Source of the DNA: Elusimicrobiaceae bacterium
GTDB taxonomy: Bacteria; Elusimicrobiota; Elusimicrobia; Elusimicrobiales; Elusimicrobiaceae
DNA length: 64,000 nucleotides
Direction of reading: 5' to 3'
Assembly (NCBI GenBank): GCA_045586725.1
Contig: JAZNAY010000001.1
Coordinates: 74,161-138,160 of the forward strand
In this document: piece after piece, positions 3,145-60,306 of the stretch
Position numbering within the stretch: position 1 is the stretch's first letter
Layout: every line of letters starts with the position of its first letter
Notes under the pieces: generated by a model
Told to the model about the DNA's origin: nothing
The model's database searches: none
The model's input: only the letters and a program-made list of their open reading frames with translations
Translations under genes and position numbers: made by a program

Positions 3145-3420
3145 TTAATTTATTTGCACGGCAACCGGTTTCTTCTGCGGTTTTTGCGGTTTTTGAGGTT
3201 TTGCAAGTTTAACCGTGGTTTTGTCTTTAGTTTTGTTTATTTCTTTTATTTGATTTTCGTAGGGGATTTCTTCCTCATAGTCCATTTGCGGGGCGACGAG
3301 TAAATCAAATTCCTCTTCCAAAACGCCATTTTCTTTATAATAGTAATAGCCTTCATCTTTTCTTGAGTTACAAGCACATAACAGAACGCACAATGTTAAA
3401 ACCATAAAAAAGTATTTCAT
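3145..3420 (-). CDS. small lipoprotein with a (PQK)n tail
   Basis: Internal start MKYFFMVLTLCVLLCACNS has a lipobox LLCAC and is preceded by AGGAGGTG. The C-terminus is KPQKPQKPQKKP. Function unknown. Confidence 0.55.
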   Translation of the reverse strand: MKYFFMVLTLCVLLCACNSRKDEGYYYYKENGVLEEEFDLLVAPQMDYEEEIPYENQIKEINKTKDKTTVKLAKPQKPQKPQKKPVAVQIN

Positions 3421-3495: not shown

Positions 3496-4914
3496 ATGAG
3501 GAAATTATTGATATTTACTTTTTGTTTACTGTTTACTGCCTGCGCAGGAAACAGAACTCTTGACGGAGAAACAACCAAAAATTGGGTTAAAATTGTTTCT
3601 TCTAAGATTGATAGATCTGGCAATATTCAAGATGTCTGTTATGTCTTTGACCTATCTTTTTACCCCGGAACAGTGTATGAAAGGTTAAAAAATAACCCTA
3701 ATACCTGCCTTGAGGAATGTTGTTGGTATTCGGAAAATAAAAGCGTAGATTTTTATTTTAACGATGGTTTTATTAGAGATTTGGAAGAACAAGGTGTCTC
3801 CCGCCGTTATTACCCGGATAATATGAAGATTAACTTAACTTATTCATCTTTTTTGAATCGTTTATCTGCAAAAGCAACTTCTGGTGAAGGTATTTCCAAA
3901 GATGGTGTCGTAAGGCTTGAATATGAAGATATCTATAACCCCGATCTAACAAATGAAGCAGGTACTAAGGCAGTAACTGAAGTTAATACGAGCAATTCCT
4001 CATCTTATAAAACATCAAGCATGAGTGGGCTTAACCGGAAGGAACTTTTAACTAAAGCAGAAAATGAGCAAAGGGAGTATTATACCAAAGCCGTAGCAGA
4101 ACGCTATGACAGCCCGGAAAAAGAATATGTGGAAGATGCATTGTCGTTTAAAGGGCAAGTTTCACCTTTCGTTAAAACAGATAAGGAAGCAAAATGGCTG
4201 TCCAAAAAACCCGTAACGGAAGAAGAAAGAATCAAGCAGCAAGAAATTATTGAGTATAGGAATAAAATAAAAGAAGAACGTGAACAGGCTAAACAGCAAG
4301 CCAAAGAAGAACGGGAAAAAGCCAAACAACAAGCCAAGGAAGAGAAAGAAAAACTTAAGCAGGAAAAAGAAAAACTTAAGCAAGAGAAAGAGCAACTTAA
4401 ACAGGAACAAGAAAAACTTAAACAATCAGCAGGACAACTTAATCAGCAAAAAGTTAATGTTGCGGCCAATGGAAAGGACAAAATGTATGATGTACAACGT
4501 ACTTTGGCACAAGAGGCAAAAATTGTTTATGTAGAACCTGTGATGCCTGAAGAAGTTGATTCTAAAACTTTGGCCAAAAAACTTGATTATGAAAGAAATG
4601 AGGCTGTTAAATTGCTCAAACGTTTTTACGGCGATGATATCGATACTTATCTCCGTGCGTTAGATAATGCTAAAAAGAAAAAGGGGCAGGTTTTGTTTAC
4701 CGATGATAAAGTTTGGCAAGCACAGAAAATAGCTACAACGGTTTATAAAGTTAACTGCAATGTTAAAGGTAAAATTGCTTTGCTCGGAACAAAACCCGAA
4801 ACAGCAACAACAGATTACCCTATTGCTTGCGGAACTTATATCGTTAATTTAGATGAAAAAACCGTCGCGGCAAAGGATAATATCGCTAAAGACATAGCCC
4901 AAAAAAGATATTGA
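3496..4914 (+). CDS. lipoprotein with a central K/E/Q-rich coiled-coil repeat region
   Basis: Signal plus lipobox MRKLLIFTFCLLFTACAG. Central repeats REQAKQQAKEE / REKAKQQAKEE and EKLKQEK x4. No recognisable catalytic motif. Confidence 0.6.
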   Translation: MRKLLIFTFCLLFTACAGNRTLDGETTKNWVKIVSSKIDRSGNIQDVCYVFDLSFYPGTVYERLKNNPNTCLEECCWYSENKSVDFYFNDGFIRDLEEQGVSRRYYPDNMKINLTYSSFLNRLSAKATSGEGISKDGVVRLEYEDIYNPDLTNEAGTKAVTEVNTSNSSSYKTSSMSGLNRKELLTKAENEQREYYTKAVAERYDSPEKEYVEDALSFKGQVSPFVKTDKEAKWLSKKPVTEEERIKQQEIIEYRNKIKEEREQAKQQAKEEREKAKQQAKEEKEKLKQEKEKLKQEKEQLKQEQEKLKQSAGQLNQQKVNVAANGKDKMYDVQRTLAQEAKIVYVEPVMPEEVDSKTLAKKLDYERNEAVKLLKRFYGDDIDTYLRALDNAKKKKGQVLFTDDKVWQAQKIATTVYKVNCNVKGKIALLGTKPETATTDYPIACGTYIVNLDEKTVAAKDNIAKDIAQKRY

Positions 4915-4987: not shown

Positions 4988-5512
4988 TTAATCTCCTTCT
5001 TCCTCATGCGGTGGGCCACAACTTTGTGTGCTTTCGCAATACCACCAACCTTGATTTCTTAACATGTCACAAATATACTCTCCGACTTGTGTATTATAGG
5101 TGTAACAATAATATAGAGACTGTGTTTTTCCATTTCCGTTTACATTATATAACTCGGTTAAACCGTAAGAGCCATTAGTTCTAATTGCTTCAACTGATGT
5201 GAAATTGTTATTGCTTATTCCATCTCCAAAAATTATATATTCGAAATTGTCAGTGGTATATTGATCGGGTAATTGATTAGGTAATTCTATATCAAGCATA
5301 TCAAAAGTAATATCCATATCTTCTGTATCATCGTTTTCATACATTAGTCTATACAAAGAATTTTCAATACTTTTAAGGGTTGTAAGTGCTTCGGATAATT
5401 TCGCTTTTTCAACCGCTCTTGTATATTGGGGTAAAGCAATACTTGCTAAAATACCGATAATTAAAACGACAACCAATAATTCTAGTAATGTGAAACCTTT
5501 TTTATTTTTCAT
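4988..5512 (-). CDS. prepilin-type N-terminal cleavage/methylation domain protein (pilin-like)
   Basis: Starts MKNKKGFTLLELLVVVLIIGILASIALPQY at the ATG at 5512. Upstream on the minus strand is TTGACT followed by a TATAGT/TAGTAT -10. Cys-rich acidic C-terminus. Confidence 0.85.
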   Translation of the reverse strand: MKNKKGFTLLELLVVVLIIGILASIALPQYTRAVEKAKLSEALTTLKSIENSLYRLMYENDDTEDMDITFDMLDIELPNQLPDQYTTDNFEYIIFGDGISNNNFTSVEAIRTNGSYGLTELYNVNGNGKTQSLYYCYTYNTQVGEYICDMLRNQGWWYCESTQSCGPPHEEEGD

Positions 5513-5632
5513 AATGTTCCTTGTTATCAAAGTGTACTCCTATATACTATAAAAAAAACAGTATTAAGTCAATTTAATATAGGGGGGGAATTTCGAATCC
5601 CTATGAATTCTCCCTACTGTCATTTTTTTATT

Positions 5633-14854: not shown

Positions 14855-15892
14855 CTATTTAGTTAATTTTATACTGCCTGTTTTTGTTATTAAAAAGGTA
14901 TCTTCATACCTAATACCAAATTTGTTTTTAAAATAAAGCCCCGGCTCTATCGTAGTTAATGCATTTTCTTTTACTGTGTCTTCGCTCTTTTGGGATAATA
15001 TCGGGCGCTCATGTATTTCAAGCCCCAAATTGTGCCCGAGTGAATGTATAAAATATTTTGAAGCATCAAAATTATCTTCAAAATAATTGCGTGCCAAAGT
15101 ATCAAGTTCTTTTGCACCTTTGCCTGATTTAAGGGCTTTGTGTGCGACGGTGTAAGCTTCAAAAACCGCCTCAAAATAATGCTTAAATTCTTGCGAAGGT
15201 TTTTTGCCGAACCAAAAACTGCGCGTCATATCAGAGCAATAACCTTTATATCGGCAACCGAAATCTACTAAGACCGGCATTTCCTGTTTTAATTTCAAAT
15301 TTGAATTTGTATGGTGCGGGTTTGCGGTGTTTTTACCGAAGGCCATAATTGTATCAAAAGCAAGCCCTTGCCCACCGAGTTCTGCCATAATACCTTCAAG
15401 CAATTTTGCAGCCTGAATTTCTGTCATACCTGCTTTTAATTTTTTCTTAAAAATTTCAAAACTTTTTGAGGATATTTCGCAAGCCTTTTTTATAAGTTTT
15501 ATTTCGTCTTTTGTTTTAACTTCGCGGATAATAGAAGTTATTTTTGCCATTTCCTTAACGCCTGCTCTATATAAGGCTATTCCGTTTAAATAAGTGGATG
15601 CACAAGGGTCAAAAACAAAATTTTTGGCTTGTTTACCAAGGTTTTTTATAAGGTCATTAATATCGAGTGAATTTACAAAATTTAAAAACGGGCATTTAGT
15701 TTTTATGTCAATTAAGTACATTTCTTTTGTATAGCAAGTGGCTTTTTTAGGGGTTACTAGTAAAAAAGCATCGCCGTCGCTTACAAAAGTAAAAGAGGTT
15801 AAATAATTAATTGTCAAAATATCTGTAATTACAGCACCGCCGATTTTTTGCGCGGCTAGATATTTTTGAAATTTTTTAAGTGTTTCCGTCAT
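14855..15892 (-). CDS. M24 family Xaa-Pro aminopeptidase/dipeptidase
   Basis: Creatinase-like N-terminal domain plus pita-bread fold metal ligands (DFGCRYKGYCSDMTR, HSLGHNLGLEIHE, TIEPGLY, YEDT). Confidence 0.85.
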   Translation of the reverse strand: MTETLKKFQKYLAAQKIGGAVITDILTINYLTSFTFVSDGDAFLLVTPKKATCYTKEMYLIDIKTKCPFLNFVNSLDINDLIKNLGKQAKNFVFDPCASTYLNGIALYRAGVKEMAKITSIIREVKTKDEIKLIKKACEISSKSFEIFKKKLKAGMTEIQAAKLLEGIMAELGGQGLAFDTIMAFGKNTANPHHTNSNLKLKQEMPVLVDFGCRYKGYCSDMTRSFWFGKKPSQEFKHYFEAVFEAYTVAHKALKSGKGAKELDTLARNYFEDNFDASKYFIHSLGHNLGLEIHERPILSQKSEDTVKENALTTIEPGLYFKNKFGIRYEDTFLITKTGSIKLTK

Positions 15893-16938
15893 TTTATTTG
15901 TTTTGCCCCTGTTTTAGTCATATAAAAACAGTCTTCATGGCGTACGCCGAATTTGCCCGGCAAATAGATACCAGGTTCAATACTAAAGCAATAATTTAGG
16001 CCGATTTTATTTTTGTTTAATTCAGAAATATCTGCAAGTTCATGGTCTTGCATACCGATACCGTGGCCTGTTCGGTGGGTAAAATAGCCCCCATAACCTG
16101 CTTTTTTAATAACACCGCGGGAAAGCGCATCGATTTGTGCACCTGTCATGCCGTATTTTGCTTTTTTTACGGCGGTATCATGTGCTAAAATTGCAAGATC
16201 CAAAATCTTTTGATATTCCGGGTTTACTTTGTCACCAAACCAGAAACATCTGGTAATATCTGAGCAATAGCCTTTATAAACACAACCGAAATCAAGCAAA
16301 ACTGCGGTATTATTTTTTAATTTAGTATCGTCAGGCAAATGGTGTGGGTTTGCGCCGTTTGCGCCAAAGGACACTAAAGGAACAAAAGACATTGCCGTTG
16401 CGCCGCGCTCGCGCATAAACATTTCAATTTTAAGCGCGACTTGCTTTTCCGTCATACCTGCTTTGATTTCTTTTTTAATATAGAGAAAAGCACCGTAAGC
16501 AAGTTGTGCGGCCTCTTTCATTATTTTTATTTCTTGTTCAGTTTTTGTGGCACGAACTAAATTAATAAAATTGGAAACGGTCTTAAAACCGGCTTTTTTA
16601 TATTCTTTTGCTTGTGCAAAAAACTCTTTGTTTTCGTCAAAAGCGACTGCTTTTAATTTGAGTGTTTTTGCCTGTTTAATAATTTCAAAATGCTGGCCCT
16701 GTTCAAGAGGTATAAATTTGGCTTTTGGGAAATATTTTTTTGAATCGTTTTCATATAATGGGCGTGTAACAATTACAAGGCCTTTTTTGTGAATAAGAAG
16801 TGTAGCCTCGCCTTCACAGAAAATCTCTCCTAACAAGTAGTTCATGTCGTGAACATCTGTTAAGATAAGCCCATCTAATTTGTTTTTATTTAGGGCTGTA
16901 AGAATATTTTTAAATTTTGATTGATCAATACCGGGCAT
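15889..16938 (-). CDS. M24 family Xaa-Pro aminopeptidase/dipeptidase (tandem paralog)
   Basis: Same ligand pattern as its neighbour (DFGCVYKGYCSDITR, HRTGHGIGMQDHE, SIEPGIY, HEDC). Overlaps the downstream paralog by 4 nt. Confidence 0.85.
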   Translation of the reverse strand: MPGIDQSKFKNILTALNKNKLDGLILTDVHDMNYLLGEIFCEGEATLLIHKKGLVIVTRPLYENDSKKYFPKAKFIPLEQGQHFEIIKQAKTLKLKAVAFDENKEFFAQAKEYKKAGFKTVSNFINLVRATKTEQEIKIMKEAAQLAYGAFLYIKKEIKAGMTEKQVALKIEMFMRERGATAMSFVPLVSFGANGANPHHLPDDTKLKNNTAVLLDFGCVYKGYCSDITRCFWFGDKVNPEYQKILDLAILAHDTAVKKAKYGMTGAQIDALSRGVIKKAGYGGYFTHRTGHGIGMQDHELADISELNKNKIGLNYCFSIEPGIYLPGKFGVRHEDCFYMTKTGAKQIK

Positions 16939-17011
16939 AAGACCTCTCTACATTATACCAATTATAGAGAGGGTTTGTGTGATAGTTTTACATGTTAATG
17001 TTCCGTAATAG

Positions 17012-17186
17012 GAAAATCTACAGTTTTCATTTTTTGCTAGCGGCGTCTTTTGGGCTAATTTAAATTTTTCCTTTCCTAGAATACCGAAAATCGCTTCGCT
17101 CCTATACTTCTGGGTATTCGTCGTCAAGGAGAAAATTTAAATTATCTCCAAAATACTTGCTAGGTGTGTGTACTTACGGTGCGGCT
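17012..17186 (+). repeat. structured intergenic element, copy C (diverged)
   Basis: Collinear with 54207..54378. Shares the core TCGCTTCGCTCC, GTCGTC, AAAATACTTG and ACGGTGCGGCT. Its arms differ from copy A but stay complementary (TAATTTAAATTTT/AAAATTTAAATTA; GAATACC/GGTATTC). Confidence 0.75.
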
Positions 17187-17249
17187 TTTTTAATATAAAA
17201 CCCCGGTTAAATAAACCGAGGTTTTATAAACTTTCCTTGATTTCCATTT

Positions 17250-17678
17250 TTATTTTTTACTGGGTAATAAGCAGAAAATTAATAATGGCATACCACTCAA
17301 AACCTGTGCAGCATCTATAAAAAGTTTTACTGTTTTAACTTGTGGCACATTTAATGATAGTAATCTCATAACAACTAGTAAAGAGAAAATACAGGATACG
17401 ATTGATGGAATTAATAATAATCCCCAATAGGGATTAAACCCGGTATCTCTTATTCTGCGGACAGTTATAGCCCAATGCGGTATATTATACGCCAACATGA
17501 TTGTTGCCCATATAATACTAAACATTGGATATAACATTATAAACGGTGCGGAAAATAAAGCAATTCCTATCCCAAATATCACAACCCACAAAACAAATAA
17601 CCAGTATTGTTTGCGAGTTGCTTTGCCGCTAAAATCAGCATAATGGTATCTTAGTACATCAATAAAATATTCTTTCAT
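17250..17678 (-). CDS. DUF805 domain inner-membrane protein
   Basis: DUF805 signature: FSGKATRKQYW near the N-terminus, TM helices, and RRIRDTGFNPYW. Confidence 0.8.
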   Translation of the reverse strand: MKEYFIDVLRYHYADFSGKATRKQYWLFVLWVVIFGIGIALFSAPFIMLYPMFSIIWATIMLAYNIPHWAITVRRIRDTGFNPYWGLLLIPSIVSCIFSLLVVMRLLSLNVPQVKTVKLFIDAAQVLSGMPLLIFCLLPSKK

Positions 17679-24839: not shown

Positions 24840-24881
24840 ACATTTATACTCAAATCTTATAAAATGAGCAAGGGAGAAAAT

Positions 24882-25409
24882 ATGAAAAATAAAAAAGGTT
24901 TTACTTTACTTGAATTATTGGTAGTAGTTTTAATTATAGGTATATTGGCAAGTATTGCTTTGCCGCAATATCGTATGGCAGTAACAAAGGCAAGAGTTGC
25001 AAGTATATTACCACTAATGCGAAGATGGTATGACGCTATGGCAGAATATAGATTACAACATGGTGATTACAATATTAATGATGCCTCTGCTTTAGGTGTA
25101 TCTTGGCCAACTGATTGGAAAATAAGTGGTTCTAATAATCTTTGTGATGATCATGTAGAATGTTCAAATGATTATTGGTATTGCTTCGCTAATGAAGAGC
25201 TCTCGGGGCAGGTTTATTGTGATCACACTACAAATGATGGCGCTTTTGCAATAGTTTTATTTCAACCAGATGAACCTCTTTATAAAAAATGTCAAGGTAA
25301 AATAGCTTGTTATGCTGATGGTGAAGATGCCAATAAAGTTTGCAAAGCATTAGGTGGTACAATTGTCCGAGGTACAGGTATTACTTGGGAATATGTCTAT
25401 TTGTTATAA
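24882..25409 (+). CDS. prepilin-type N-terminal cleavage/methylation domain protein (pilin-like)
   Basis: MKNKKGFTLLELLVVVLIIGILASIALPQY, with RBS AGGGAG upstream of the ATG at 24882. The C-terminal domain is paralogous to 665..1219. Confidence 0.85.
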   Translation: MKNKKGFTLLELLVVVLIIGILASIALPQYRMAVTKARVASILPLMRRWYDAMAEYRLQHGDYNINDASALGVSWPTDWKISGSNNLCDDHVECSNDYWYCFANEELSGQVYCDHTTNDGAFAIVLFQPDEPLYKKCQGKIACYADGEDANKVCKALGGTIVRGTGITWEYVYLL

Positions 25410-25430
25410 ATAAGATCGCGATACAAGGAT

Positions 25431-25485
25431 AAAAATTTACCAAAAAGACGTCGCTGCCACAAAACTTAAATTGCGAAAATTCCTA
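25431..25485 (-). repeat. left-arm fragment of the structured intergenic element (copy D)
   Basis: The reverse complement reads GAATTTTCGCAATTTAAGTTTTGTGGCAGCGACGTCTTTTTGGTAAATTTTT. This matches the first ~55 nt of copy A (GAAATTTGCAGT...GTCTTTTTGGTAAATTTTG), after which similarity stops. Confidence 0.55.
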
Positions 25486-36631: not shown

Positions 36632-36661
36632 ATAAGTATAGGGATAAAGGAGGGGATTTTT

Positions 36662-37243
36662 ATGTATAAAAAAGGTTTTACTCTTATAGAATTGCTTATG
36701 GTGGTGTTAATTATTGGCATTTTATCAGCAATTGCTTTACCCCAATATAAGAGGGCAATTGAAAAGTCAAGATATGCAGAAATAGAAGAAATGATACACA
36801 ACATACTTAGTGCGGAGCAAAGATATTATCTTGACCATGGCACTTTCACTGACACTTTTAACAAGTTAGATACCGATTTTTCAATCAGCAATGGCGTAAT
36901 ATCCGGAAATCTGTTGCGTACTGATAATATGGAAATTTCAATAGACGCAAAATATATTGAGGCAAGTAGAACTAAAGGAACGCCTAGGGTTGATCTTACT
37001 AGTGTGTATACCATATATGGGGATATGGAAACGGGGAGAATTTTTTGTCAAGATGATATTGAGAAAGATGATATAACTTGTAAATGGTTTGGGCTTGATG
37101 AAATGAAGATGTGTTATGATGACGTCGTTGTAGGTGTAAAAGATCATTGCCCGGACGAGATTTCATCGCAAGAGTCATGCGAAAAGAACGGTTGTTATTG
37201 GGATACTAGTACGAAACCGGAAAGTTGTACATGTAAACCGTAA
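36662..37243 (+). CDS. prepilin-type N-terminal cleavage/methylation domain protein (pilin-like)
   Basis: MYKKGFTLIELLMVVLIIGILSAIALPQY. The C-terminus is Cys-rich (CPDEISSQESCEKNGCYWDTSTKPESCTCKP). Confidence 0.85.
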   Translation: MYKKGFTLIELLMVVLIIGILSAIALPQYKRAIEKSRYAEIEEMIHNILSAEQRYYLDHGTFTDTFNKLDTDFSISNGVISGNLLRTDNMEISIDAKYIEASRTKGTPRVDLTSVYTIYGDMETGRIFCQDDIEKDDITCKWFGLDEMKMCYDDVVVGVKDHCPDEISSQESCEKNGCYWDTSTKPESCTCKP

Positions 37244-40930: not shown

Positions 40931-41047
40931 ATAAGTATTTTACTTAACAATAACTCCCCTACGAAAGTGGGGGAGTTTCTTGTTTCTAGTACGGAAATTG
41001 TTAAAGGTTTAATTTTTTTGTAAAATGTGTGTATGCGCACAGTAATT

Positions 41048-41599
41048 ATGAAAAATAAGAACGGTTTTATGTTAATCGAAATATTAGTGGTAGTTTTGAT
41101 TATAGGCATACTTGCAAGCATTGCTTTGCCGAGATATCAAATGGCAGTTGATAAAACAAAATATACAAATCTAATGCCGATAACAAAAACCATACTAGAA
41201 TCTCAATTACGGGCTTTATTGGAAACAGAAAACCCTTCTTTCGAAGATTTAGATATCGGTATACCTGGAAATTGTACGCTGGTTGATGGTCATCCGTGGG
41301 CCATTACTTGTGATGATGGTAGATGGGGTTGCTTAATGAGGAGAAGTGGTGGTACTCCTGTTAGATATTGGACTCGTTGTACTGATGTAGGACTTAATGC
41401 TTCTTATTTTTATACCATAAACATGGGGTCATCGGATGTTTCTGCGCGATGTTATGCCCATACTACGGAAGATGATGATAGGCCCAATCGTTTATGTAAG
41501 GCACTTACAAATAAAGAAAATCGTGAAGCAAGGGAAGGTATTGCCATGTTTTGGCAACCTAACGGCCCTTGGGTTCAATCAAACGGATATTCTTTTTAG
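41048..41599 (+). CDS. prepilin-type N-terminal cleavage/methylation domain protein (pilin-like)
   Basis: MKNKNGFMLIEILVVVLIIGILASIALPRY from the ATG at 41048. A C-terminal LCKAL motif is shared with 24882..25409 (VCKAL). Confidence 0.85.
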   Translation: MKNKNGFMLIEILVVVLIIGILASIALPRYQMAVDKTKYTNLMPITKTILESQLRALLETENPSFEDLDIGIPGNCTLVDGHPWAITCDDGRWGCLMRRSGGTPVRYWTRCTDVGLNASYFYTINMGSSDVSARCYAHTTEDDDRPNRLCKALTNKENREAREGIAMFWQPNGPWVQSNGYSF

Positions 41600-54095: not shown

Positions 54096-54167
54096 TGGGC
54101 AGTACAGGGTTCGAACCTGTGACCTTCCGCGTGTGAGGCGGACGCGCTACCACTGCGCCAACTGCCC
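54096..54167 (-). tRNA. tRNA-Val (anticodon CAC)
   Basis: Minus strand: GGGCAGT TG GCGC AGTGGTA GCGC G TCCGC CTCACAC GCGGA AGGTC ACAGG TTCGAAC CCTGT ACTGCCC A. Confidence 0.9.
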
Positions 54168-54206
54168 TTGTCTTTACTATATTTTAGCAAATTATTTGTG
54201 CGTTTT

Positions 54207-54378
54207 GAAATTTGCAGTATCCATTTTCTGCCACCAAAGTCTTTTTGGTAAATTTTGATTTTTCTACTCCTAAAGTACCGAGAGTCGCTTCGCTCCCGTT
54301 CTTCTTTGTACTTGTCGTCGTAGTAAAAATTAAAATTTCCTCAAAAATACTTGTCGGACTTTAGCACACGGTTTGGCT
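54207..54378 (+). repeat. structured intergenic element, copy A
   Basis: 172 bp, nearly identical to the reverse complement of 59172..59343. Long hairpin AAATTTTGATTTTTCTAC / GTAGTAAAAATTAAAATTT and AAGTAC / GTACTT around the core TCGCTTCGCTCC. Confidence 0.8.
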
Positions 54379-54418
54379 CCATATAATGACTTATAAACGC
54401 TAAAAATGGTAAAATATA

Positions 54419-54757
54419 TGTGCTGGAAAGCCGCTGGAAACAGAGGAACTTCCGAACTTCATAGGGCAACGGGCTAACTGAAAAGTTAGGGAGATAGGGC
54501 CATATACCTATTTGACGGACAGTGCCGCAGAAAACAAACCGCCCGCAAGGGTAAGGGTGAAAAGGTGGGGTAAGAGCCCACCGCGTGTAAAGCAATTTGC
54601 ACGGCAAGGCGAACCCCCCGTGAAGCAAGGCCAAGCCAGTTGCGCTGCCCGCGCTGGAGTAATCCATAAAAGACAAAGTAGGCCGCTTAGATAAATGGCT
54701 TTCACCTTTCGGGCTTTAGTCCGAGGGGGACAGAATTCGGGGTACAAGCAAGACCAC
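54419..54757 (+). ncRNA. rnpB: RNase P RNA, bacterial type A
   Basis: Conserved blocks aligned by eye to E. coli M1 RNA: GAGGAACTTCCGAACTTCATAGGGCA (P4 5' strand), GGGTAAGGGTGAAAAGGTGGGGTAAGAGCCCACCGCG, AGCAAGGCCAAG, GATAAATGGCTTTC, ACAGAATTCGGGG (P4 3' strand). TAAAAT lies just upstream and a terminator hairpin at the 3' end. End coordinates are good to about 5 nt. Confidence 0.85.
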
Positions 54758-54786
54758 CCACTAAAAAATAACGTGGGTGGTTTTTA
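54753..54786 (+). terminator. terminator at the rnpB 3' end
   Basis: ACCACCCAC TAAAAAATAAC GTGGGTGGT TTTT. Confidence 0.7.
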
Positions 54787-54828
54787 AATTTTGTATAATT
54801 ACCTTATCTTTACTATCAAGGAGATTTT

Positions 54829-55800
54829 ATGAAAAAAATAATTATACTGTTATCGTTTTGTTTAATTTTGAATATTACCGCTTGCCAAAAGAGTGAAAAT
54901 AGTAATAAAGGTAACATAATTCCTAAATCAAGTCAACAAAACAATAATGAAGAAGTAAGAGAACAAGATAATGCGAAAAAAGCCATAAAAAATTTAGCAG
55001 AGCCATACACTGTAAACAAACAACTAATTGATGGTGTAAAAAAAGGAGATTTATATCTTGTTGAAGATGCTTTAAAACAAGGTGCGAATATAAACACAAG
55101 AGATCATGAAGGCAGTGAAACCGTATCTGAAATAAAAGTAAGTAGTTATACCCTTGAAACACTACCGGACGGAACTGGCCTTATTAAATATCAAGGGGAA
55201 GAACTTGTTAAACGATGGACTCCGTTAATGTGGGCTTGTTATGAGGGTAAAAAAGATATGGTAGAGTTTCTCATATCAAAAGGTGCAGATCTTGAGGCTG
55301 TTGATTTAAAAACAGGTGATACACCCCTCATATTGTCTTTTGTTGAATCATTTGATAATGTCGATATTACCGAATTATTACTTGACAAGGGTGCGAATAT
55401 AAATAATAAAAATAAAGATGGTTTTTCGCCTTTAGCATTAGCCGTTGATGTTAATAATGTCAAGGCAACAAAATTATTATTGGACAAAGGGGCAAATGTT
55501 AATACGACTAATAATTGGGATGAAACCCCTTTAATGACAGCAAGTGGTTTAGGTTTAAAAGATATAGCTCAACTTTTGTTGGACAAAGGGGCAAATGTCA
55601 ATATGAAAAGTGATATTGGTGTAACTGCTTTACTATTGGCTACTAATGAAAATCAATTTGAAATAGTTAAGTTGTTGCTTGAAAACGGTGCAGATACTAG
55701 TATTGCAAATAGAAGTGGATACACTCCTTTAAAAGTGGCTATGGAAGATGGCAATACTAAAATGATAAAGCTTTTGAAATCCTACGGTGCAAAGAAATAA
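54829..55800 (+). CDS. ankyrin-repeat lipoprotein
   Basis: Lipobox LNITAC, then at least five canonical ANK repeats (TPLMWACYEGKKDMVEFLISKGADL, SPLALAVDVNNVKATKLLLDKGANVN, TPLMTASGLGLKDIAQLLLDKGANVN and others). Confidence 0.85.
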   Translation: MKKIIILLSFCLILNITACQKSENSNKGNIIPKSSQQNNNEEVREQDNAKKAIKNLAEPYTVNKQLIDGVKKGDLYLVEDALKQGANINTRDHEGSETVSEIKVSSYTLETLPDGTGLIKYQGEELVKRWTPLMWACYEGKKDMVEFLISKGADLEAVDLKTGDTPLILSFVESFDNVDITELLLDKGANINNKNKDGFSPLALAVDVNNVKATKLLLDKGANVNTTNNWDETPLMTASGLGLKDIAQLLLDKGANVNMKSDIGVTALLLATNENQFEIVKLLLENGADTSIANRSGYTPLKVAMEDGNTKMIKLLKSYGAKK

Positions 55801-55867
55801 GGTTTTCGGATTTTCCTCTTTAAATATGCTATAATTATATTGTATCTTTATAGATATAATTTAATAG

Positions 55868-55939
55868 GAGCAAGTTTGGCTCTTGCTTGGTATAAGCGTT
55901 TTTTGTCAGGCAACACACTTCGCAGCGCGGTGCTTATAC
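55868..55939 (+). promoter_or_regulatory. structured rpsO 5' leader (candidate S15 autoregulatory element)
   Basis: Hairpin GAGCAAG-TTTGGCT-CTTGCTT, then an 8-bp helix GTATAAGC (55890-97) / GCTTATAC (55932-39) enclosing a GC-rich insert. Located 30 to 100 nt upstream of the rpsO ATG and downstream of TATAAT boxes at 55830 and 55855. Confidence 0.4.
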
Positions 55940-55971
55940 TCGGTAAAAAGCCCTAAACTTGAAATGAAAAA

Positions 55972-56238
55972 ATGTTAACGAAACAAGACAGAAAAGATAT
56001 TATCTCAAAATTCCAACAAAGTGATGCTGACACCGGTTCACCGTCAGTACAAGTTGCTTTGATTACTGAAAGAATTCGCTACATATCAGAGCACCTCAAA
56101 CAAAACCCTAAAGATTTTGCTGGTGAAAGGGGTTTAACCCGCCTCGTCGGGCAACGCAAACGCTTGCTTGCTTATTTAAAGAAAAATGATTTCGCTAAAT
56201 ATCAAGCATTAACAAAAGAACTTAAATTAAGGAAATAA
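55972..56238 (+). CDS. rpsO: 30S ribosomal protein S15
   Basis: 88 aa with the typical S15 sequence ([36 protein letters not shown]). Confidence 0.95.
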
Positions 56239-56240
56239 TA

Positions 56241-58337
56241 ATGAGTAATCTAGGAAAATTTAGCCACAGCGTAGAAGTCGGTGGCAAAACTATCACGCTT
56301 GAAACAGGTGTGATGGCCAAACAAGCCGACGGTGCTGTTATCGCCCGCATCGGCGATACTATGGTACTTGCAACCGCTGTATGTGATAAAGTACAAAAAC
56401 CCGGTTTGCAAGATTTTGTACCTTTAACCGTTAACTATAAAGAAAGAACCTATGCCGCGGGTAAAATCCCCGGCGGTTTTTTTAAACGCGAAACAAAGGC
56501 AAGCAAAAAGGAAACATTATCATCACGTCTTATTGACCGCTCTATGCGCCCGCTATTCCCTGAAGGGTTTGCATGTGAAGTCAATGTCACCGCAATGGTA
56601 CTTTCTGCCGATGGTGTAAATGACAGTGATGTTTTAAGCATTGTTGCTTCAAGTGCTGCAACGGTAATTTCTTCAATTCCGTTTACACAACCTGTTGCAG
56701 GCGTCCGCGTTGACCGCGTTGACGGCAAATATATTATTAACCCGACTGTTCAAGAACGCAAAGTTGCCGATATGGACCTCGTAATTGCAGGTACCATGCA
56801 AGGCATTATGATGGTTGAGGGCGGTGCACACGAAGTTGATGAAGAATCACTCGTAAAAGCCATTGAAATCGCACAACCTGAAGTCAAAAAACTTTGCCAA
56901 GCACAACTTGAACTTCGCGAAAAATGCGGTAAAGCAAAATTTGAATTTAAAGCAGAAACTTTACCTCAAGAAGTTTTAGATATGGCAAACAACACATATC
57001 GTGCAAAAGTTGCGGAAATTTTACATAAATTTTCCGACAAACAAACACGTGATTGTGATATTGCCAACTTAAAAGAAGCTTTTAAAACCGAATTAACCGA
57101 AAAATACCCGGAAGAAGGCGCAATCTACGCCGATTTTGCTATGGAAATGCTTGCTTATGAAGAATCCCGCAAAATGGTATTAAATGAAGGCATCCGCGTA
57201 GATGGTAGAAAGACTGACCAAATCAGACCTTTAAGTTCTATGGTCGGTGTTTTACCTTGCGCACATGGTTCCGCTTTATTTACCCGCGGTCAAACACAAT
57301 CACTTGCAACCGCAACTTTAGGGACATCAAGTGATGCCCAAATGGTGGAAGGCCTTGAAGAAACTTATGATGAAACTTTTATGCTTCATTATAACTTCCC
57401 CGGCTTTGCTACCGGTGAATGTAAACCGGACCGCGCACCCGGCCGCCGCGAAATCGGCCACGGGGAACTTGCACGCCGCGCTTTAATGCCGCTTATTCCA
57501 AGCCAGGACAAATTCCCTTATACTATTAGGGTTGTTTCCGACATTATGGAATCAAACGGTTCATCTTCAATGGCAAGCGTCTGCGGTGGTTCTTTAGCCT
57601 TATTTGATGCAGGCGTTCCTATGAAAGCCGCTTGCAGCGGTATCGCTATGGGTTTAATTACCGAAGGTGATAAATATGCCGTACTTTCAGATATTATGGG
57701 TATGGAAGATCATCTTGGCGATATGGACTTTAAATTAACCGGTTCCCGCAAAGGTATAACCGCTTTCCAAATGGACTTAAAACTTGCAACAGGTATTTCC
57801 TTAGACGTTTTAAGAAAAGCCATTGCACAAGCCACAAAAGGCCGCATGTTCATTATGGACCATATGGATTCCGTTATCAGCGAACCGCGCAAAACTTTAC
57901 CGAAAAATGCACCTATGATTTATACTATGATGATTCCGCAAGATAAAATCGGCGCCTTAATCGGCCCCGGCGGTAAAAATATCAAACGTATTACCGAAAC
58001 CAGCGGTGCAAAAATTGATGTTGATGAAGACGGTAAAGTTGTAATTGCCGCCCCTAACGCCGAAAAACTTAACCAAGCAAAAGCGGAAGTTGAACTTTTG
58101 ACTAAAGAAGTTGAAGTCGGCCAAATATATGAAGGGAAAGTTGTTTCCATTCAACCTTTTGGCGCTTTTGTTGAACTTTTACCGGGTAAAGACGGTTTAT
58201 TACATATTTCACAAATTGCAAATGAAAGAGTTGCAAAAGTGGAAGATGTTTTACAACTCGGCGATACCGTAAAAGTCAAAGTTGTTGAAATTGACAATAA
58301 CGGCAAAGTTCGCTTATCAAGAAAAATTTTGTTATAG
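56241..58337 (+). CDS. pnp: polyribonucleotide nucleotidyltransferase (PNPase)
   Basis: 698 aa: two RNase PH domains, a KH domain (IGPGGKNIK) and a C-terminal S1 domain ([14 protein letters not shown]). Confidence 0.95.
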
Positions 58338-58368
58338 TTGATATAACTTAATTTAAAAATAAAATTTA

Positions 58369-58394
58369 AAAGCACCCGGAAGGGTGCTTTTAAA
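58369..58394 (+). terminator. rho-independent terminator of pnp
   Basis: AGCACCC GGAA GGGTGCT TTT. Confidence 0.7.
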
Positions 58395-58424
58395 TTTCGT
58401 GGTTAAAGTACAATTTATAAATTA

Positions 58425-59111
58425 TTATTTGCGTGTGGTATTTGAAGAACTTTTCTTAAAGGGCGGCGTATTTTTCTGTTCTGTACATCTTTCATAACCT
58501 GATATGACAGTAGAGCTTGTTGCTGTAAGGAAATTAGATGGAGTATCACATGGCATACAACGTCCTTCTTTATGTCCATCAATAATTAACGGTTTATCAT
58601 CCGGACAATTAAGATAACAGCTATTACCTTTTATTATTTTATTTGGGCATTTTTCACAACCAAAAACATTTTTTATATTTTTCAAATTTTTATACTCGTT
58701 ACATGCCATACATTCTCCGTTAACATATAATGGTTTATCATCAGGACAGTTTTTTGGCTTTATCCACGATTGAGTGTACTCATCAAAATAAAAATCCGGC
58801 CCCGGAGCATCCTTTAATACACAATAAGTACTCCATATATCAGTAGCTCCGAAATATGCTTTTATAGTACTTTTTCTATTCGGACAAATTTGAGAGCAAA
58901 AGTCACCAGTATAACTAGGGATCATAAAAGAATGAACATCATTACATGAGATGCATCCATATTGTGTATAAAGCGGTTTATCAGCGGGGCATTTTGCCAA
59001 CTTATCTTCATATTCTTTTTGCCATTTTTCTACATACTCTTTTGGTGGTTTTATTGCAAGAGCCGGCATTGTAATAATTAAACAAAGCAGAACAATAAAA
59101 AATTTTTTCAT
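58425..59111 (-). CDS. secreted Cys-rich protein with three CP[AD]DKPL...CxxC modules
   Basis: Signal peptide, then KCPADKPLYTQYGCISCND, NCPDDKPLYVNGECMACNE and NCPDDKPLIIDGHKEGRCMPCDT. Each is followed by further CxxC(P) pairs. I do not recognise the domain. Confidence 0.55.
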   Translation of the reverse strand: MKKFFIVLLCLIITMPALAIKPPKEYVEKWQKEYEDKLAKCPADKPLYTQYGCISCNDVHSFMIPSYTGDFCSQICPNRKSTIKAYFGATDIWSTYCVLKDAPGPDFYFDEYTQSWIKPKNCPDDKPLYVNGECMACNEYKNLKNIKNVFGCEKCPNKIIKGNSCYLNCPDDKPLIIDGHKEGRCMPCDTPSNFLTATSSTVISGYERCTEQKNTPPFKKSSSNTTRK

Positions 59112-59171
59112 AAAATCTCCTTAAATAAAATTTTAATAATGTTTTCTAAATTATATCAAAATTCTTAATAA

Positions 59172-59343
59172 AGCCAAACCGTGCACCTAAACCCGGCAAG
59201 TATTTTTGAGGAAATTTTGATTTTTACTGCGACGCGAAGTACAAAGAAGAATGGGAGCGAAGCGACTCTCGGTACTTTAGGAGCTGAAAAATCAAAATTT
59301 ACTAAAAAGAATTAGCCGGCAAAAAACAAAAACTGCAAATTTC
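59172..59343 (-). repeat. structured intergenic element, copy B (inverted relative to A)
   Basis: The reverse complement is collinear with 54207..54378 over 172 bp. The A/T arm is perfect in this copy (AAATTTTGATTTTT / AAAAATCAAAATTT). Confidence 0.8.
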
Positions 59344-59500
59344 ATATCCCAAAAAGACGACACAAAAGGGAAGGCAGCCTAGGGGTTCGGCTGCCTTGGG
59401 GTATAAATTAGTATCGTACCAAAAGGAGGAGGTAATTACTAATTTATTCTTTGTTATACTTATAGTTTATAACAAACTGTGATATTTTAAAAGGGTTCTT

Positions 59501-59634: not shown

Positions 59635-60306
59635 ATGAAGATTTTCGGTTTTGATACATTACCTTCAACCAATACTTACTCTGTAGAAAATTTTGATAGT
59701 TTTGAAAATCAAGATATTATTATGGCAGAAATTCAAACAGCAGGTAAAGGAAGGAAGGGCCGTAAATGGTCTTCAGAAACAGGCGGTTTATATTTTACAA
59801 TAATTTTAAAACCGTATGAAATTAAACCGGAACAGGCAAGTTCACTCACGCAAATTATGGCAATAAGTGTTTGCAAAACCGTCAGAAATTTGGGGGTTAA
59901 GGCTTATTTAAAATGGCCAAATGATGTGCTTTTTAAAGGTAAAAAATTTTGCGGTATTTTAAGTGAAGCCGTTACTAAGAATAATGTTTTAGAAGGTGTT
60001 GTTATCGGCGTAGGAATAAACATAGAACAAAAAAATATAGTCTCTGAAAAACCTTTTACCACTTTGGCGGAAATGGGTCTAAAAGTTTCAAAAAGCGGTT
60101 TAGTTGAAGACATAATTTCAAATTTTAATGAGATGCAAAATAAAGATTTTATTAATGAATTTAAAAAACTTTGCCCGACAATAAATAAAGAAATTATCAT
60201 TGACGGTAAAAAAGGTATTTTTGAAGATATTGATAATGCCGGCCGTATGATTTTAAAAACGGAAAAAGGTCGTGAAATTATAATAGCTGGCGACGTACAA
60301 TTTTAG
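59635..60306 (+). CDS. birA: biotin--[acetyl-CoA-carboxylase] ligase (group I, no HTH domain)
   Basis: Motif GKGRKGRKW (GRGRxGRxW-type biotin/ATP loop) and KWPNDV. At 223 aa it lacks an N-terminal repressor domain. Confidence 0.85.
   Translation: MKIFGFDTLPSTNTYSVENFDSFENQDIIMAEIQTAGKGRKGRKWSSETGGLYFTIILKPYEIKPEQASSLTQIMAISVCKTVRNLGVKAYLKWPNDVLFKGKKFCGILSEAVTKNNVLEGVVIGVGINIEQKNIVSEKPFTTLAEMGLKVSKSGLVEDIISNFNEMQNKDFINEFKKLCPTINKEIIIDGKKGIFEDIDNAGRMILKTEKGREIIIAGDVQF

Follow-up and report, generated by a model that had tools for sequence, protein, structure and literature searches.

The window considered here is a stretch of 64,000 nucleotides (64 kb) from an Elusimicrobiaceae bacterium, and it contains three full copies and one remnant of a repeat of roughly 180 bases, which is previously undescribed and of the same general kind as REP, BOX and ERIC. 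Copy A (54200–54384) is situated between the promoter of a tRNA-Val gene and that of rnpB, and has the minus strand as its sense strand, a term used here for the folding strand. This copy was found by nhmmer at 54200–54380 (+) and by covariance model CM R1, which was built from 71 copies from other genomes and the window and was run over the window with filters off, at 54206–54384 (−), scoring 187.8 bits as compared to 25.4 bits on the opposite strand. The orthologous copy in locus L060 is 92% identical. A promoter-like site for tRNA-Val (54181–54209, minus strand; TTCAAA-17-TAAAAT, preceded by TG) has a −35 hexamer that overlaps the sense 3′ end of copy A. Copy B (59166–59350; nhmmer 59350–59170 (−); CM R1 59166–59344 (+), 199.7 bits) has the plus strand as its sense strand and lies between an ORF for a Cys-rich secreted protein (58425–59111, minus strand) and the leader region of birA. 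A putative promoter of the Cys-rich ORF (59150–59177, minus strand; TTGGCT-16-TATAAT, preceded by TG), recognized by consensus match only, has its −35 hexamer inside the conserved GGTTTGGCT tail of this copy. Copy C (17007–17192, sense strand minus; nhmmer 17007–17188 (+); CM R1 17012–17192 (−), 187.4 bits) belongs to the 'type 2' arm subfamily, has orthologous counterparts in L065 and L064, and is placed between the terminator of a DUF805 gene (17250–17678, minus strand) and the promoter of an M24 peptidase gene (15889–16938, minus strand), gene, element and gene all being co-directional (neighbours by Pfam). The remnant (25422–25482, plus strand) comprises only the sense 3′ part, i.e. the last arm and the A-rich tail, and was detected by nhmmer (25477–25426, E 2.8e-4), by the covariance model (21.6 bits, E 0.005) and as an inverted match to copy A (73%). 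It is located between a pilin-like gene (24864–25409, plus strand) and mreC (25525, plus strand), co-directional with both. A comparable 3′-end remnant is present at the orthologous, 'nearly empty' site of L076.

Complementarity between copies A and B amounts to 85% over 184 nt, and identity between copies A and C to 74% over 146 nt. The 12-mer TCGCTTCGCTCC, which on the sense strand reads GGAGCGAAGCGA, occurs exactly three times in the window (mean of shuffled sequences 0.08; none of 100 reached 3), once in each full copy, at 54285–54296 (−), 59254–59265 (+) and 17091–17102 (−). With CM R1, only the three copies (188–200 bits) and the fragment (21.6 bits, E 0.005) were recovered from the window. 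The initial annotation of this DNA had proposed these same three full copies and one fragment, at positions that agree to within a few bases, together with a covariance-model search that has now been carried out on the window, and the neighbouring genes that it named (tRNA-Val, rnpB and those for the M24 peptidase, BirA and MreC) were confirmed, the protein genes by Pfam, which also identified MarC, DUF805 and a pilin-like protein among the neighbours. Its statement that the element is not recognizable as any Rfam family likewise stands: at gathering thresholds, Rfam 15 finds only rnpB and four tRNAs in the whole window, and a permissive scan of 54150–54420 on both strands gave only animal and plant miRNA or lncRNA models with E values of at least 0.25, far below thresholds.

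A scan of species-representative genomes, with matches confirmed by nhmmer, yielded 84 near-full and some 35 partial copies, all in loci from about 12 metagenome-assembled genomes (MAGs) of gut and rumen Elusimicrobiaceae, with at least 24 copies in one genome. The copies are always intergenic across the scanned genomes, and TPR-like, pilin-like and secreted paralogues are recurrent neighbours. Pattern matches outside the family Elusimicrobiaceae (Lachnospiraceae, Planococcus, Bacteroides and others) must be due to chance, since none was confirmed by nhmmer. A phage origin was rejected: the single match in a viral contig (L096) also is a chance match in GC-rich coding DNA without nhmmer support.

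Read as the reverse complement of copy A, which is its sense strand, the unit measures about 178 nt and is built of a conserved A-rich 5′ tail (AAATAAAGCCAAACCG), a central imperfect hairpin of about 130 nt with four stacked helices and an almost invariant apex (GGAGCGAAGCGA), and an A-rich 3′ tail. In copy A the hairpin spans 54231–54357 (−), as indicated by RNA and DNA folds and the consensus helices. The apex is about 99% conserved over 82 copies. Internal-loop motifs of the hairpin are conserved as well (GACGAC opposite UAGGA), and the invariant GTCGTC lies inside the unit, in the loop that separates helix 2 from helix 3. As RNA, the hairpin of copy A folds better than shuffled sequences on both strands (z −3.3 and −3.2); as DNA, the sense strands of the window copies reach z values of −4.6 to −5.3. 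In the alignment of 71 copies, the consensus comprises 40 pairs, with compensatory changes on both sides at 20 of these. Paired cells amount to 97.6%, as compared to 89.7% in shuffles and 41–58% when partners are slid, and the covariation score of 0.290 (shuffles 0.141) was reached by 0 of 500 shuffles, statistics that overstate independence because the copies are mutually related. The hairpin is maintained by compensatory change. The earlier description of a structured repeat family with an invariant core and an extended hairpin of about 130 nt agrees with the covariation and the fold statistics, and the order of motifs that it listed is visible in an alignment.

The pairing is not symmetrical with respect to strand. 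On the sense strand there are 105 G·U cells and 19 A·C cells, G·U exceeding A·C at 19 pair positions and the reverse being found at 5, which means that wobble pairs are tolerated on the sense strand only. The sense strand is also the more stable one in RNA folding of 58 of the 79 copies and in DNA folding of all three window copies; for copy A the DNA fold has −21.0 kcal/mol (z −4.6) on the minus strand as compared to −16.9 on the plus strand. This asymmetry bears on the notion that each copy is an independent sRNA gene read in the orientation of copy A, starting at the symmetric −10 box of a divergent promoter, ending at the G/U-rich tail GGUUUGGCUUUAUUU and using the C/U-rich apex UCGCUUCGCUCC for seeding on Shine-Dalgarno sequences. 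In many copies, AT-rich, near-palindromic −10 boxes indeed lie 10–25 nt from the left end in copy-A orientation, and a conserved U-rich right tail following a weak hairpin is formed on the copy-A strand only. That tail hairpin has a mean energy of only −2.9 kcal/mol, however, with −5 or lower in just 10 of the 71 copies, selection maintains the main hairpin on the opposite strand, and no promoter is conserved at a constant distance. Trans-acting sRNA genes, furthermore, do not typically come in 24 or more diverged copies per genome with presence/absence differences and mosaic forms, and we consider this explanation very improbable. Among the 71 copies a −10 motif upstream of the sense 5′ end was found once, and a general terminator, as a stand-alone sRNA would have, was not found. 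An intrinsic terminator would require a U tract directly after a stable hairpin, but what follows the long hairpin on the sense strand is rich in A. For the family as a whole, the sense 5′ module was also rejected as a terminator of the upstream gene: the hairpin preceding GUAUUUUUG has a mean MFE of −1.6 kcal/mol, as compared to −1.9 for shuffles, it reaches −5 or lower in only 6 of 71 copies, and a good hairpin before a U run occurs in a handful (L095, L007, L019). A small protein encoded by the element was also considered; the 50-aa ORF at 54212–54364 starts with TTG, and frame-shifting indels among the copies argue against it.

Surviving copies are oriented with their folding strand co-directional with the adjacent genes. 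When gene, element and gene are co-directional, the element is in sense orientation in 30 cases and antisense in 6 (p = 7e-5). Of 75 copies, 51 point with their sense 3′ end towards the start of a gene, and in 46 of 74 the sense 5′ end is turned towards the end of one. All these orientation counts rest on crude gene calls (longest-ORF greedy). The initial annotation had considered the orientation of copy B meaningful, which is supported both by its being the folding strand and by its agreement with flanking genes; its further claim that each copy precedes a co-directional gene is true of about 68% of the copies across genomes (51/75) and is not a universal rule. In about 20 cases the element begins within some 36 nt of the upstream stop codon, so that it must be included in the transcript of the upstream gene. 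Divergent genes flank 20 of the 65 classifiable copies, copies A and B included. Orientation follows local genes rather than the replication strand, since neighbouring copies at the same locus (within 8 kb) have the same orientation in 6 cases and the opposite in 7; a replication-strand bias can thus be rejected. Copy C and the fragment, 8 kb apart and on opposite strands, each match their own local genes.

There are 30 occurrences of the extended −10 motif on the sense strand, 25–60 nt past the hairpin foot, as compared to 10 on the antisense strand and a single one upstream. These downstream motifs read away from the element at variable distance, and in many copies the sense 3′ end abuts or overlaps the −35 of co-oriented promoters. 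Surviving copies occupy the few tolerated spots of compact genomes, mostly after a stop codon or terminator and directly upstream of the next core promoter. This position raises the possibility of an element acting at the DNA level, with a duplex or cruciform that binds a nucleoid or regulatory protein, an A-rich sense 3′ tail that is UP-like, or an insulator upstream of core promoters. Between divergent genes, extrusion of a cruciform would be helped by negative supercoiling, and the 20 copies at such positions are in agreement with this view, as are some orthologous copies that are conserved far above the adjacent spacer. On the other hand, in L066 and L017 the element also ends against the −35 of a tRNA promoter, and that promoter is unchanged at the empty site of L084 and hence does not need the element. 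Together with the variable spacing to the −10, this also rules against a promoter carried within the element; at the copy-A left end, reading of the sequence reveals a TTGACA-like hexamer with no usable −10 at 16–18 nt. Moreover, adjacency to promoters may be trivial, as insertions tolerated in compact genomes end up beside them, and a duplex site would not give the 105:19 asymmetry of G·U over A·C. A DNA-level role at promoters is therefore quite unlikely in our view.

Filled and empty orthologous sites could be compared for L066/L017 and L084, for L046 and L036, for L045 and L076, and for copy B and L097–L099, the latter being three element-less metagenome contigs of which the homology with the copy B region starts at the sense 3′ end, around 59345–59364. 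One site can carry distinct subfamilies (L089 as compared to L077/L039, identity 76–77%). A variant with an 18-nt insert is present at three loci of one genome, nesting with other repeats was observed, and composite 'type 3' forms and mosaic copies also occur. Tandem partial units of about 68 nt, representing the right half (GTCGTC...GGTTTGGCTTTATTT), follow full copies in L022, L020, L023, L057, L089, L061, L077, L030, L034 and L036; they are contiguous, without spacers, and all start at the invariant GTCGTC. Presence/absence, modular and mosaic variants, tandem partial units and nesting place the family among interspersed repeats such as BOX, ERIC, BIME and REP of bacteria, and it is not a dedicated regulatory RNA. 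It is also an old one, since copies within one genome differ by at least 10%. For only 10 of 71 copies is the closest relative found in the same genome, as many as expected by chance, and nearest identities are mostly 83–93%; this excludes recent transposition bursts and within-genome concerted evolution. Some orthologous copies are 98–99% identical, while coding flanks are 78–88% identical and the adjacent spacer is unalignable. Copies were also noticed at contig ends and at synteny or inversion breakpoints around rnpB, rpsO-pnp and birA.

A MITE would have terminal inverted repeats, but in the alignments the two ends of the unit, AAATAAAGCCAAACCG at the sense 5′ side and CTGCAAATTTCC(TAT) at the 3′ side, show no complementarity. 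The arms that do pair lie inside the unit, between conserved tails that do not match each other as inverted repeats. The three filled-versus-empty comparisons and that of copy B with L097–L099 gave no clean target-site duplication, with diverged junction spacers in which duplications of 2–3 nt could hide. In the roughly 600 kb around the copies no transposase-like ORF is adjacent to any copy, and no integrase, as expected for an integron attC array, is adjacent to the copies either. The absence of inverted repeats at the ends, of target duplications and of a nearby transposase had been noted from the window before, as had the fact that this is not a CRISPR array; both observations are supported, that on target duplications within the comparisons given above. 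Copies are kilobases apart among housekeeping genes, and the tandem partial units lack spacers. Palindrome-associated elements derived from IS200/IS605 have neither terminal inverted repeats nor target duplications, use strand-specific DNA hairpins as a recognition signal, carry two subterminal hairpins and show a replication-strand orientation bias, with the active strand on the lagging-strand template. The Elusimicrobiaceae repeat likewise has no terminal inverted repeats and no clear target duplications, and a strand-specific DNA hairpin would be its recognition signal, but it has one central hairpin and no such bias.

One alternative explanation is hairpin-directed mobile DNA, similar to REPINs or IS200/IS605-derived elements. 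The single-stranded sense strand would fold, and an enzyme of the HUH/Y1 type would read the apex and a nearby cleavage motif, e.g. GTCGTC, which would account for the absence of terminal inverted repeats and target duplications in a family that does show presence/absence at orthologous sites. Folding is strand-specific with G·T tolerated, the DNA form of the sense strand is the more stable one in all three window copies, and the tandem partial units all start at GTCGTC, as if a nuclease used an internal site. Palindromes tagged with CGTC and GTAG are a known class (PMC3733652), and the sense-strand apex includes GCGAAGC, a motif that as d(GCGAAGC) forms a very stable DNA mini-hairpin and is found at sites of single-stranded DNA replication and transcription initiation (PMC13037366). 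However, a phmmer search with three unverified Y1 queries (IS608, IS200 and RAYT), which is a weak test, gave no Y1/RAYT-like protein and no TnpA among the approximately 1900 ORFs in about 600 kb around the copies. Further, close neighbours are opposite and same in 7 and 6 cases, unlike what is seen with IS608-type elements, the lack of near-identical copies within a genome implies that there is no recent activity, and the single 130-nt hairpin differs from the short GC-rich REP stems or two subterminal hairpins of known classes. We thus regard mobility of this type as rather unlikely.

It is useful to compare the family with better-known repeats. BOX elements of pneumococcus, described together with RUP and SPRITE, have the organization boxA-boxB(n)-boxC (Croucher et al. 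2011, PMC3049150). Both families consist of short AT-rich intergenic repeats forming extended stem-loops, are modular with an internal module in tandem arrays of variable number and end modules that pair, are often clustered with or nested in other repeat families, and are confined to one lineage with ancient proliferation and few recent insertions. Orientation-dependent effects of co-transcribed BOX copies (PMC3049150) would apply to the Elusimicrobiaceae repeat by analogy. The modular architecture can be called BOX-like as a functional analogy only, with no homology claimed. There is no evident sequence similarity, and BOX differs by its ISSpn2-like terminal inverted repeats and its candidate transposase, neither of which was found for the Elusimicrobiaceae family; the latter is distinguished by a hairpin apex as its best conserved part and a strong strand bias of wobble pairs. 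With REP, BIME and REPIN it shares the lack of terminal inverted repeats and of clear target duplications in extragenic palindromes, mosaic combinations of modules (PMC3733652), a position mainly downstream of coding regions, plausible RNA hairpins, and an invariant short unpaired CGTC motif (GTCGTC here) beside a stem. REPs (Di Nocera et al. 2013, PMC3733652) are 20–40 bp long and end in an unpaired GTAG or CGTC tag, their GC-rich stem having 8–9 bp and their loop 4–5 nt. The present unit, with its length of about 178 nt, its AT-rich hairpin of some 40 bp and its internal motif, falls outside this definition of a REP. In addition, REPs are rare between divergent genes, where 20 of 65 classifiable copies of the present family are found. 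ERIC/IRU of enterobacteria and Correia elements of Neisseria (about 125–155 bp) are likewise intergenic repeats that form long hairpins in transcripts, as predicted here; their effects on mRNA stability are orientation-specific, through RNase E for ERIC and RNase III for Correia, and Correia insertions can lie at or create promoters (PMC3049150). Both have terminal inverted repeats, and Correia a TA duplication, neither of which is seen in the Elusimicrobiaceae family, and no sequence relationship was found.

The explanation to which we give about an even chance is that of an old, lineage-restricted interspersed palindromic repeat that is structurally constrained and probably acts as a hairpin in read-through transcripts. 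It would have spread anciently by a copy-and-paste process that leaves no terminal inverted repeats or obvious target duplications; as no mobilizing enzyme, terminal repeat or target duplication was found, only the distribution of the copies speaks for such a process. Selection would then act on a single-stranded form of the sense strand, most likely RNA produced by read-through of the upstream gene, in which the element would be a 3′-UTR or intercistronic hairpin. Such a hairpin could alter mRNA decay or processing, possibly with a protein that reads the invariant apex, in a way comparable to REP/BIME, ERIC, BOX and Correia. Some findings argue against read-through, however. It is not expected between divergent genes, where 20 of 65 copies are located, and copy A, between the divergent tRNA-Val and rnpB promoters, may perhaps not be transcribed at all. 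At copy C an intrinsic terminator separates the upstream gene from the element, and transcription into this copy may be low. The asymmetry of G·U over A·C, moreover, suits a single-stranded DNA form equally well, the apex d(GCGAAGC) being an unusually stable DNA mini-hairpin.

A bolder and in our opinion unlikely proposal is that the repeat is more than old selfish DNA, namely a strand-specific structured signal retained by the host. A dedicated protein would recognize its apex GGAGCGAAGCGA and its internal loop (GACGAC opposite UAGGA), and could be either a hairpin-directed nuclease or recombinase, or a factor that binds RNA or single-stranded DNA. In the former case, it would be an enzyme that moves elements without terminal repeats or target duplications; in the latter, the repeat would be a gene-boundary signal for insulation or mRNA processing, placed between the end of one transcription unit and the next promoter, in at least 12 Elusimicrobiaceae species.

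This is, as judged from Rfam 15 and the searchable literature, apparently the first interspersed repeat family for the phylum Elusimicrobiota, and its recognition aids annotation and assembly of Elusimicrobiaceae MAGs. It also offers a clean case for asking if repeats of this sort are parasitic or have been domesticated as signals, since its copies are old, retain their pairing by compensatory change on one strand only, are oriented according to local transcription and have an apex that is better conserved than the neighbouring genes. Should there be a protein partner or hairpin-directed mobilization, the invariant apex provides a direct handle to find it.

The full copies of the element in the window lie at 54207-54378 (copy A, first placed on the plus strand, with the minus strand as its sense strand), 59172-59343 (copy B, on the strand opposite to A) and 17012-17186 (copy C), and a fragment lies at 25422-25477. 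The ordered motifs of A and B can be read directly, and the two are 85% complementary over 184 nt. Copy C is 74% identical to A over 146 nt, and the fragment is a 73% match to the reverse complement of the left arm of A. Re-reading of the four places that the initial annotation had assigned to one structured family gave the same motif order in every one. The window contains precisely three occurrences of the 12-mer TCGCTTCGCTCC, where 0.08 would be expected. A covariance model of 71 copies, run over the window, recovered A, B, C and the fragment and nothing else. With Rfam 15 at gathering thresholds the window, which has a base composition of 37% G+C, yielded only rnpB (54419-54760) and four tRNAs, and a permissive scan of both strands of the element returned noise, in agreement with the earlier failure to recognise an Rfam family. 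The element region folds better than shuffled sequences on both strands. The family is real and was correctly described.

A genome scan of one representative per species, queried with the two best-conserved blocks, produced 95 loci; the three window copies supplied the nhmmer profile with which these were checked. The representatives leave out the species of the window itself, and the best syntenic matches are 82-90% identical. The confirmed family comprises 84 near-full and about 35 partial copies, all in about 12 rumen or gut MAGs labelled Elusimicrobiaceae, Elusimicrobium or Elusimicrobia, with at least 24 full copies in MAG JAZRHA. Scan matches in other phyla, as well as a single viral match to the scan pattern, were due to chance, the former by the nhmmer check.

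For an alignment of 71 full copies in sense orientation, RNAalifold predicts a single extended, imperfect hairpin whose 40 pairs form four stacked helices. For 20 of the 40 consensus pairs both sides have changed with pairing kept, as in the outer helix, which alternates between GCCGGC/GCCGG, GCTAGC/GCTAG, GCTGTC/GACAG and GCTGGC/GCCAG. Pairing is maintained in 97.6% of cells, compared to 89.7% in shuffles and 41-58% after sliding the partners 1-3 columns; the covariation score is 0.290 against 0.141 for shuffles, and none of 500 shuffles reached the observed values. Since the copies are related to one another the shuffle figures overstate independence, but the variety of pair types and the slid-partner controls make the hairpin secure despite this kinship. 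Conservation is highest in the apex GGAGCGAAGCGA, in the two internal-loop motifs (GACGAC and UAGGA) and in the tails on either side.

The initial annotation had taken the orientation of copy B as the meaningful one, and several asymmetries bear this out. On the reverse complement of copy A, G.U cells outnumber A.C cells by 105 to 19, and G.U exceeds A.C at 19 pair positions against 5 with the reverse. This strand is the more stable one as RNA in 58 of 79 copies (mean 2.9 kcal/mol), and its Alifold consensus energy is -27.1, compared to -19.0 for the copy-A strand. DNA folding gave the same preference for copies A (-21.0 vs -16.9), B (-25.2 vs -17.3) and C (-23.7 vs -20.7). The rarer apex variant CGAACGGAGUGAGUUUG, as read from its bases, pairs through G.U on the sense strand only. 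The strand preference weakens another reading, a small-RNA gene in the orientation of copy A, as does the lack of a real terminator or a fixed promoter for such a gene. The asymmetry is compatible with an RNA or a single-stranded DNA form and does not discriminate between them. The sense-strand apex includes GCGAAGC, which as DNA is an 'extraordinarily stable mini-hairpin' that melts at a Tm of 76.5 C (PMC13037366). Together with the absence of terminal inverted repeats and of clear target duplications, this would suit a rival reading, in which an HUH-type enzyme recognises the element as mobile single-stranded DNA.

The placement of the copies is relevant to this rival. By crude longest-ORF greedy gene calls around 84 copies, 51 of 75 have a gene start on the side of the sense 3' end (p = 0.002), and 46 of 74 have the end of a gene on the side of the sense 5' end (p = 0.047). 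By the same crude calls, co-directional gene-element-gene settings are sense in 30 cases and antisense in 6 (p = 7e-5), and divergent pairs host 20 copies and convergent pairs 9. Neighbouring copies in one locus are opposite in 7 cases and of the same orientation in 6, and copy C and the fragment, only 8 kb apart on opposite strands, each agree with their own neighbours; orientation therefore tracks local transcription and not the replication strand. This weakens the single-stranded-DNA reading, as do the absence of recent copies and a weak enzyme search that turned up none.

In about 20 cases the element starts no more than about 36 nt from the upstream stop codon, and in several copies that codon lies inside the element's own TAAATAAAG. 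The possibility that the sense 5' module acts as terminator of the upstream gene was rejected by test, bar a few copies. On the downstream side, 25-60 nt beyond the hairpin foot, the sense strand has 30 instances of an extended -10 (TGnTAnnAT); the other strand has 10, and there is a single instance upstream. Because an ATG follows many of these promoters by 6-7 bases, the downstream genes look leaderless, which explains the short element-to-ATG distances. Many such genes (e.g. at scan loci L004, L020, L031, L080, L007, L090, L095, L051 and L016) have TGnTAAAAT or TGnTATAAT with the ATG 6-7 nt on and no Shine-Dalgarno sequence, which suggests frequent use of leaderless mRNAs in the lineage.

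In the window, copy C is preceded by a gene and a terminator and followed by a promoter and a second gene; the fragment separates a pilin-like gene from mreC, and A and B each occupy a spacer with divergent promoters on its two sides. Copy A overlaps the -35 of the tRNA-Val promoter with its sense 3' end, and a promoter-like site of the Cys-rich ORF draws on the conserved tail of copy B. Such placement beside -35 boxes could point to a promoter-proximal element acting as DNA, but the spacing is variable, the strand asymmetry is not accounted for, and the promoter is intact at an empty site: at L066 and L017 the element immediately precedes the -35 of a tRNA promoter, and at L084 the same promoter occurs without it.

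Pilin-like genes (10) and TPR-like paralogues (13) are the commonest upstream neighbours of the element in related genomes, of about 74. A prepilin N-terminal methylation motif (KKGFTLLELLVVVLIIGILA...) is present in many proteins of the window, and the paralogous 5' gene ends encoding it (1035-1220, 5396-5522, 24864-25066, 36652-36794 and 41041-41183) form a second repeat family there; 24864-25406 matches Pfam N_methyl. An ORF near 4.3 kb contains in-frame tandem repeats of 21 and 33 nt (4270-4444), AAG/GAA-rich and encoding a K/E-rich coiled-coil-like stretch.

Presence and absence of the element vary between orthologous sites. It lies between stop codon and terminator at L046 and is missing at L036; L045 carries it, and L076 has a short sense-3'-end remnant that resembles the fragment in the window. 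Three metagenome contigs reached through BirA lack copy B and have a different upstream gene, and their homology to the window starts exactly at the sense 3' end of copy B. No clean target duplication was seen in such filled and empty site comparisons. These contigs share with the window a conserved structured stretch (59365-59480; GGGAAGGCAGCCTAGGGGTTCGGCTGCCTTGGGG...CCAAAAGGAGGAGG...) between copy B and birA at 59635, in which a stem has changed on both sides in one contig (L099) and still pairs (GGCAGCC/GGCTGCC to GGCGGAC/GTCCGCC). It has no Rfam match. On the minus strand it looks terminator-like, with a stem followed by CCCTTTTGTGTCGTCTTTTT; alternatively, it could serve as a leader, or encode a small RNA, ahead of birA-oad.

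Copies A and B flank rnpB, an ankyrin ORF, rpsO-pnp and the Cys-rich ORF in inverted orientation (4.8 kb; 54200-59350). In a comparison of L039, L060, L077 and L089, rnpB (L039, L089) or rpsO-pnp (L077) is reversed relative to tRNA-Val and birA, and the junctions carry elements; this is consistent with inversions through recombination between copies. The ankyrin-repeat lipoprotein-like ORF adjoining rnpB (54829-55800; Pfam Ank, E 4e-44) has 99-nt periodic repeats at 55373-55632 and is missing from the syntenic loci of related genomes.

Copies are also modular. One site can carry different subfamilies (L089 vs L077/L039, 76-77% identical), and a variant with an 18-nt insert (GGGTAATTCTACCCGTAG) is found three times in one genome and, at an orthologous locus, once in another. 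At ten loci, right-half units of about 68 nt, each from GTCGTC, stand in tandem behind full copies, and a 'type 3' composite has a common inner module within differing outer arms. A G+C-rich interspersed repeat with arms such as TACTTCCnATAAnTCCCCGCCCC ... GGGGCGGGG often adjoins the element, as at L020 7430-7900, L079 1075-1990 and L073 about 3170-3230 and in the right-hand flank of many copies. A very small hairpin unit, GGGTAATTCTACCC with GTAG after it, occurs eight times, four at one shared position of the element and four within the GC-rich repeat. Diverged relatives at L089 513-632 and L082 1218-1337 keep the outer arms (GTCTTTT... / ...AAAATACTTG) and differ in their interiors, the former with an unrelated G+C-rich centre and the latter with the TCGCTTCGCTCC core amid otherwise different sequence; this suggests that elements with shared arms make up a broader superfamily.

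Only 10 of 71 copies have their nearest relative in the same genome, which is chance level, and nearest-relative identities are mostly 83-93%; there have thus been no recent bursts and no within-genome homogenisation. Some orthologous copies are nevertheless 98-99% identical, with coding flanks at 78-88% and an unalignable adjoining spacer (L066/L017, L079/L094). Combined with the pairing kept across diverged copies, this speaks for ongoing selection that preserves the fold locus by locus, and against plain decay of dead insertions.

In its behaviour the family resembles interspersed palindromic repeats known from other bacteria, being lineage-restricted, intergenic only and modular; it nests with other repeats and is found at rearrangement junctions. 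It stands apart from classical MITEs and from REPs. It has no terminal inverted repeats, no visible duplication and no partner transposase beside its copies. REPs are 20-40 bp with a GC-rich stem and a terminal tag, whereas this element spans about 178 nt, its AT-rich hairpin is about 40 bp long, and its tag is internal. The closest analogy is pneumococcal BOX, which also has pairing end modules, an internal module of variable tandem number, proliferation long ago and orientation-dependent effects. In the favoured model the element is an old copy-and-paste repeat, presumably mobile at its origin, and selection maintains its sense-strand hairpin. In read-through transcripts it would most likely serve as a 3'-UTR or intercistronic hairpin influencing mRNA decay or processing, with the invariant apex as a candidate protein-binding site. 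The data directly establish the family and its age, the hairpin and the strand that folds, the bias in orientation and the variable occupancy of sites; that the element is transcribed, acts on mRNA and was once mobile is inferred. Literature searches gave no account of such repeats in Elusimicrobia, and the family adds a hitherto undescribed member to a known kind, the interspersed structured repeats of bacteria. It is unusual in its near-invariant apex, its one-strand constraint, its coupling to the direction of transcription, and a conservation at orthologous sites above that of the neighbouring genes.
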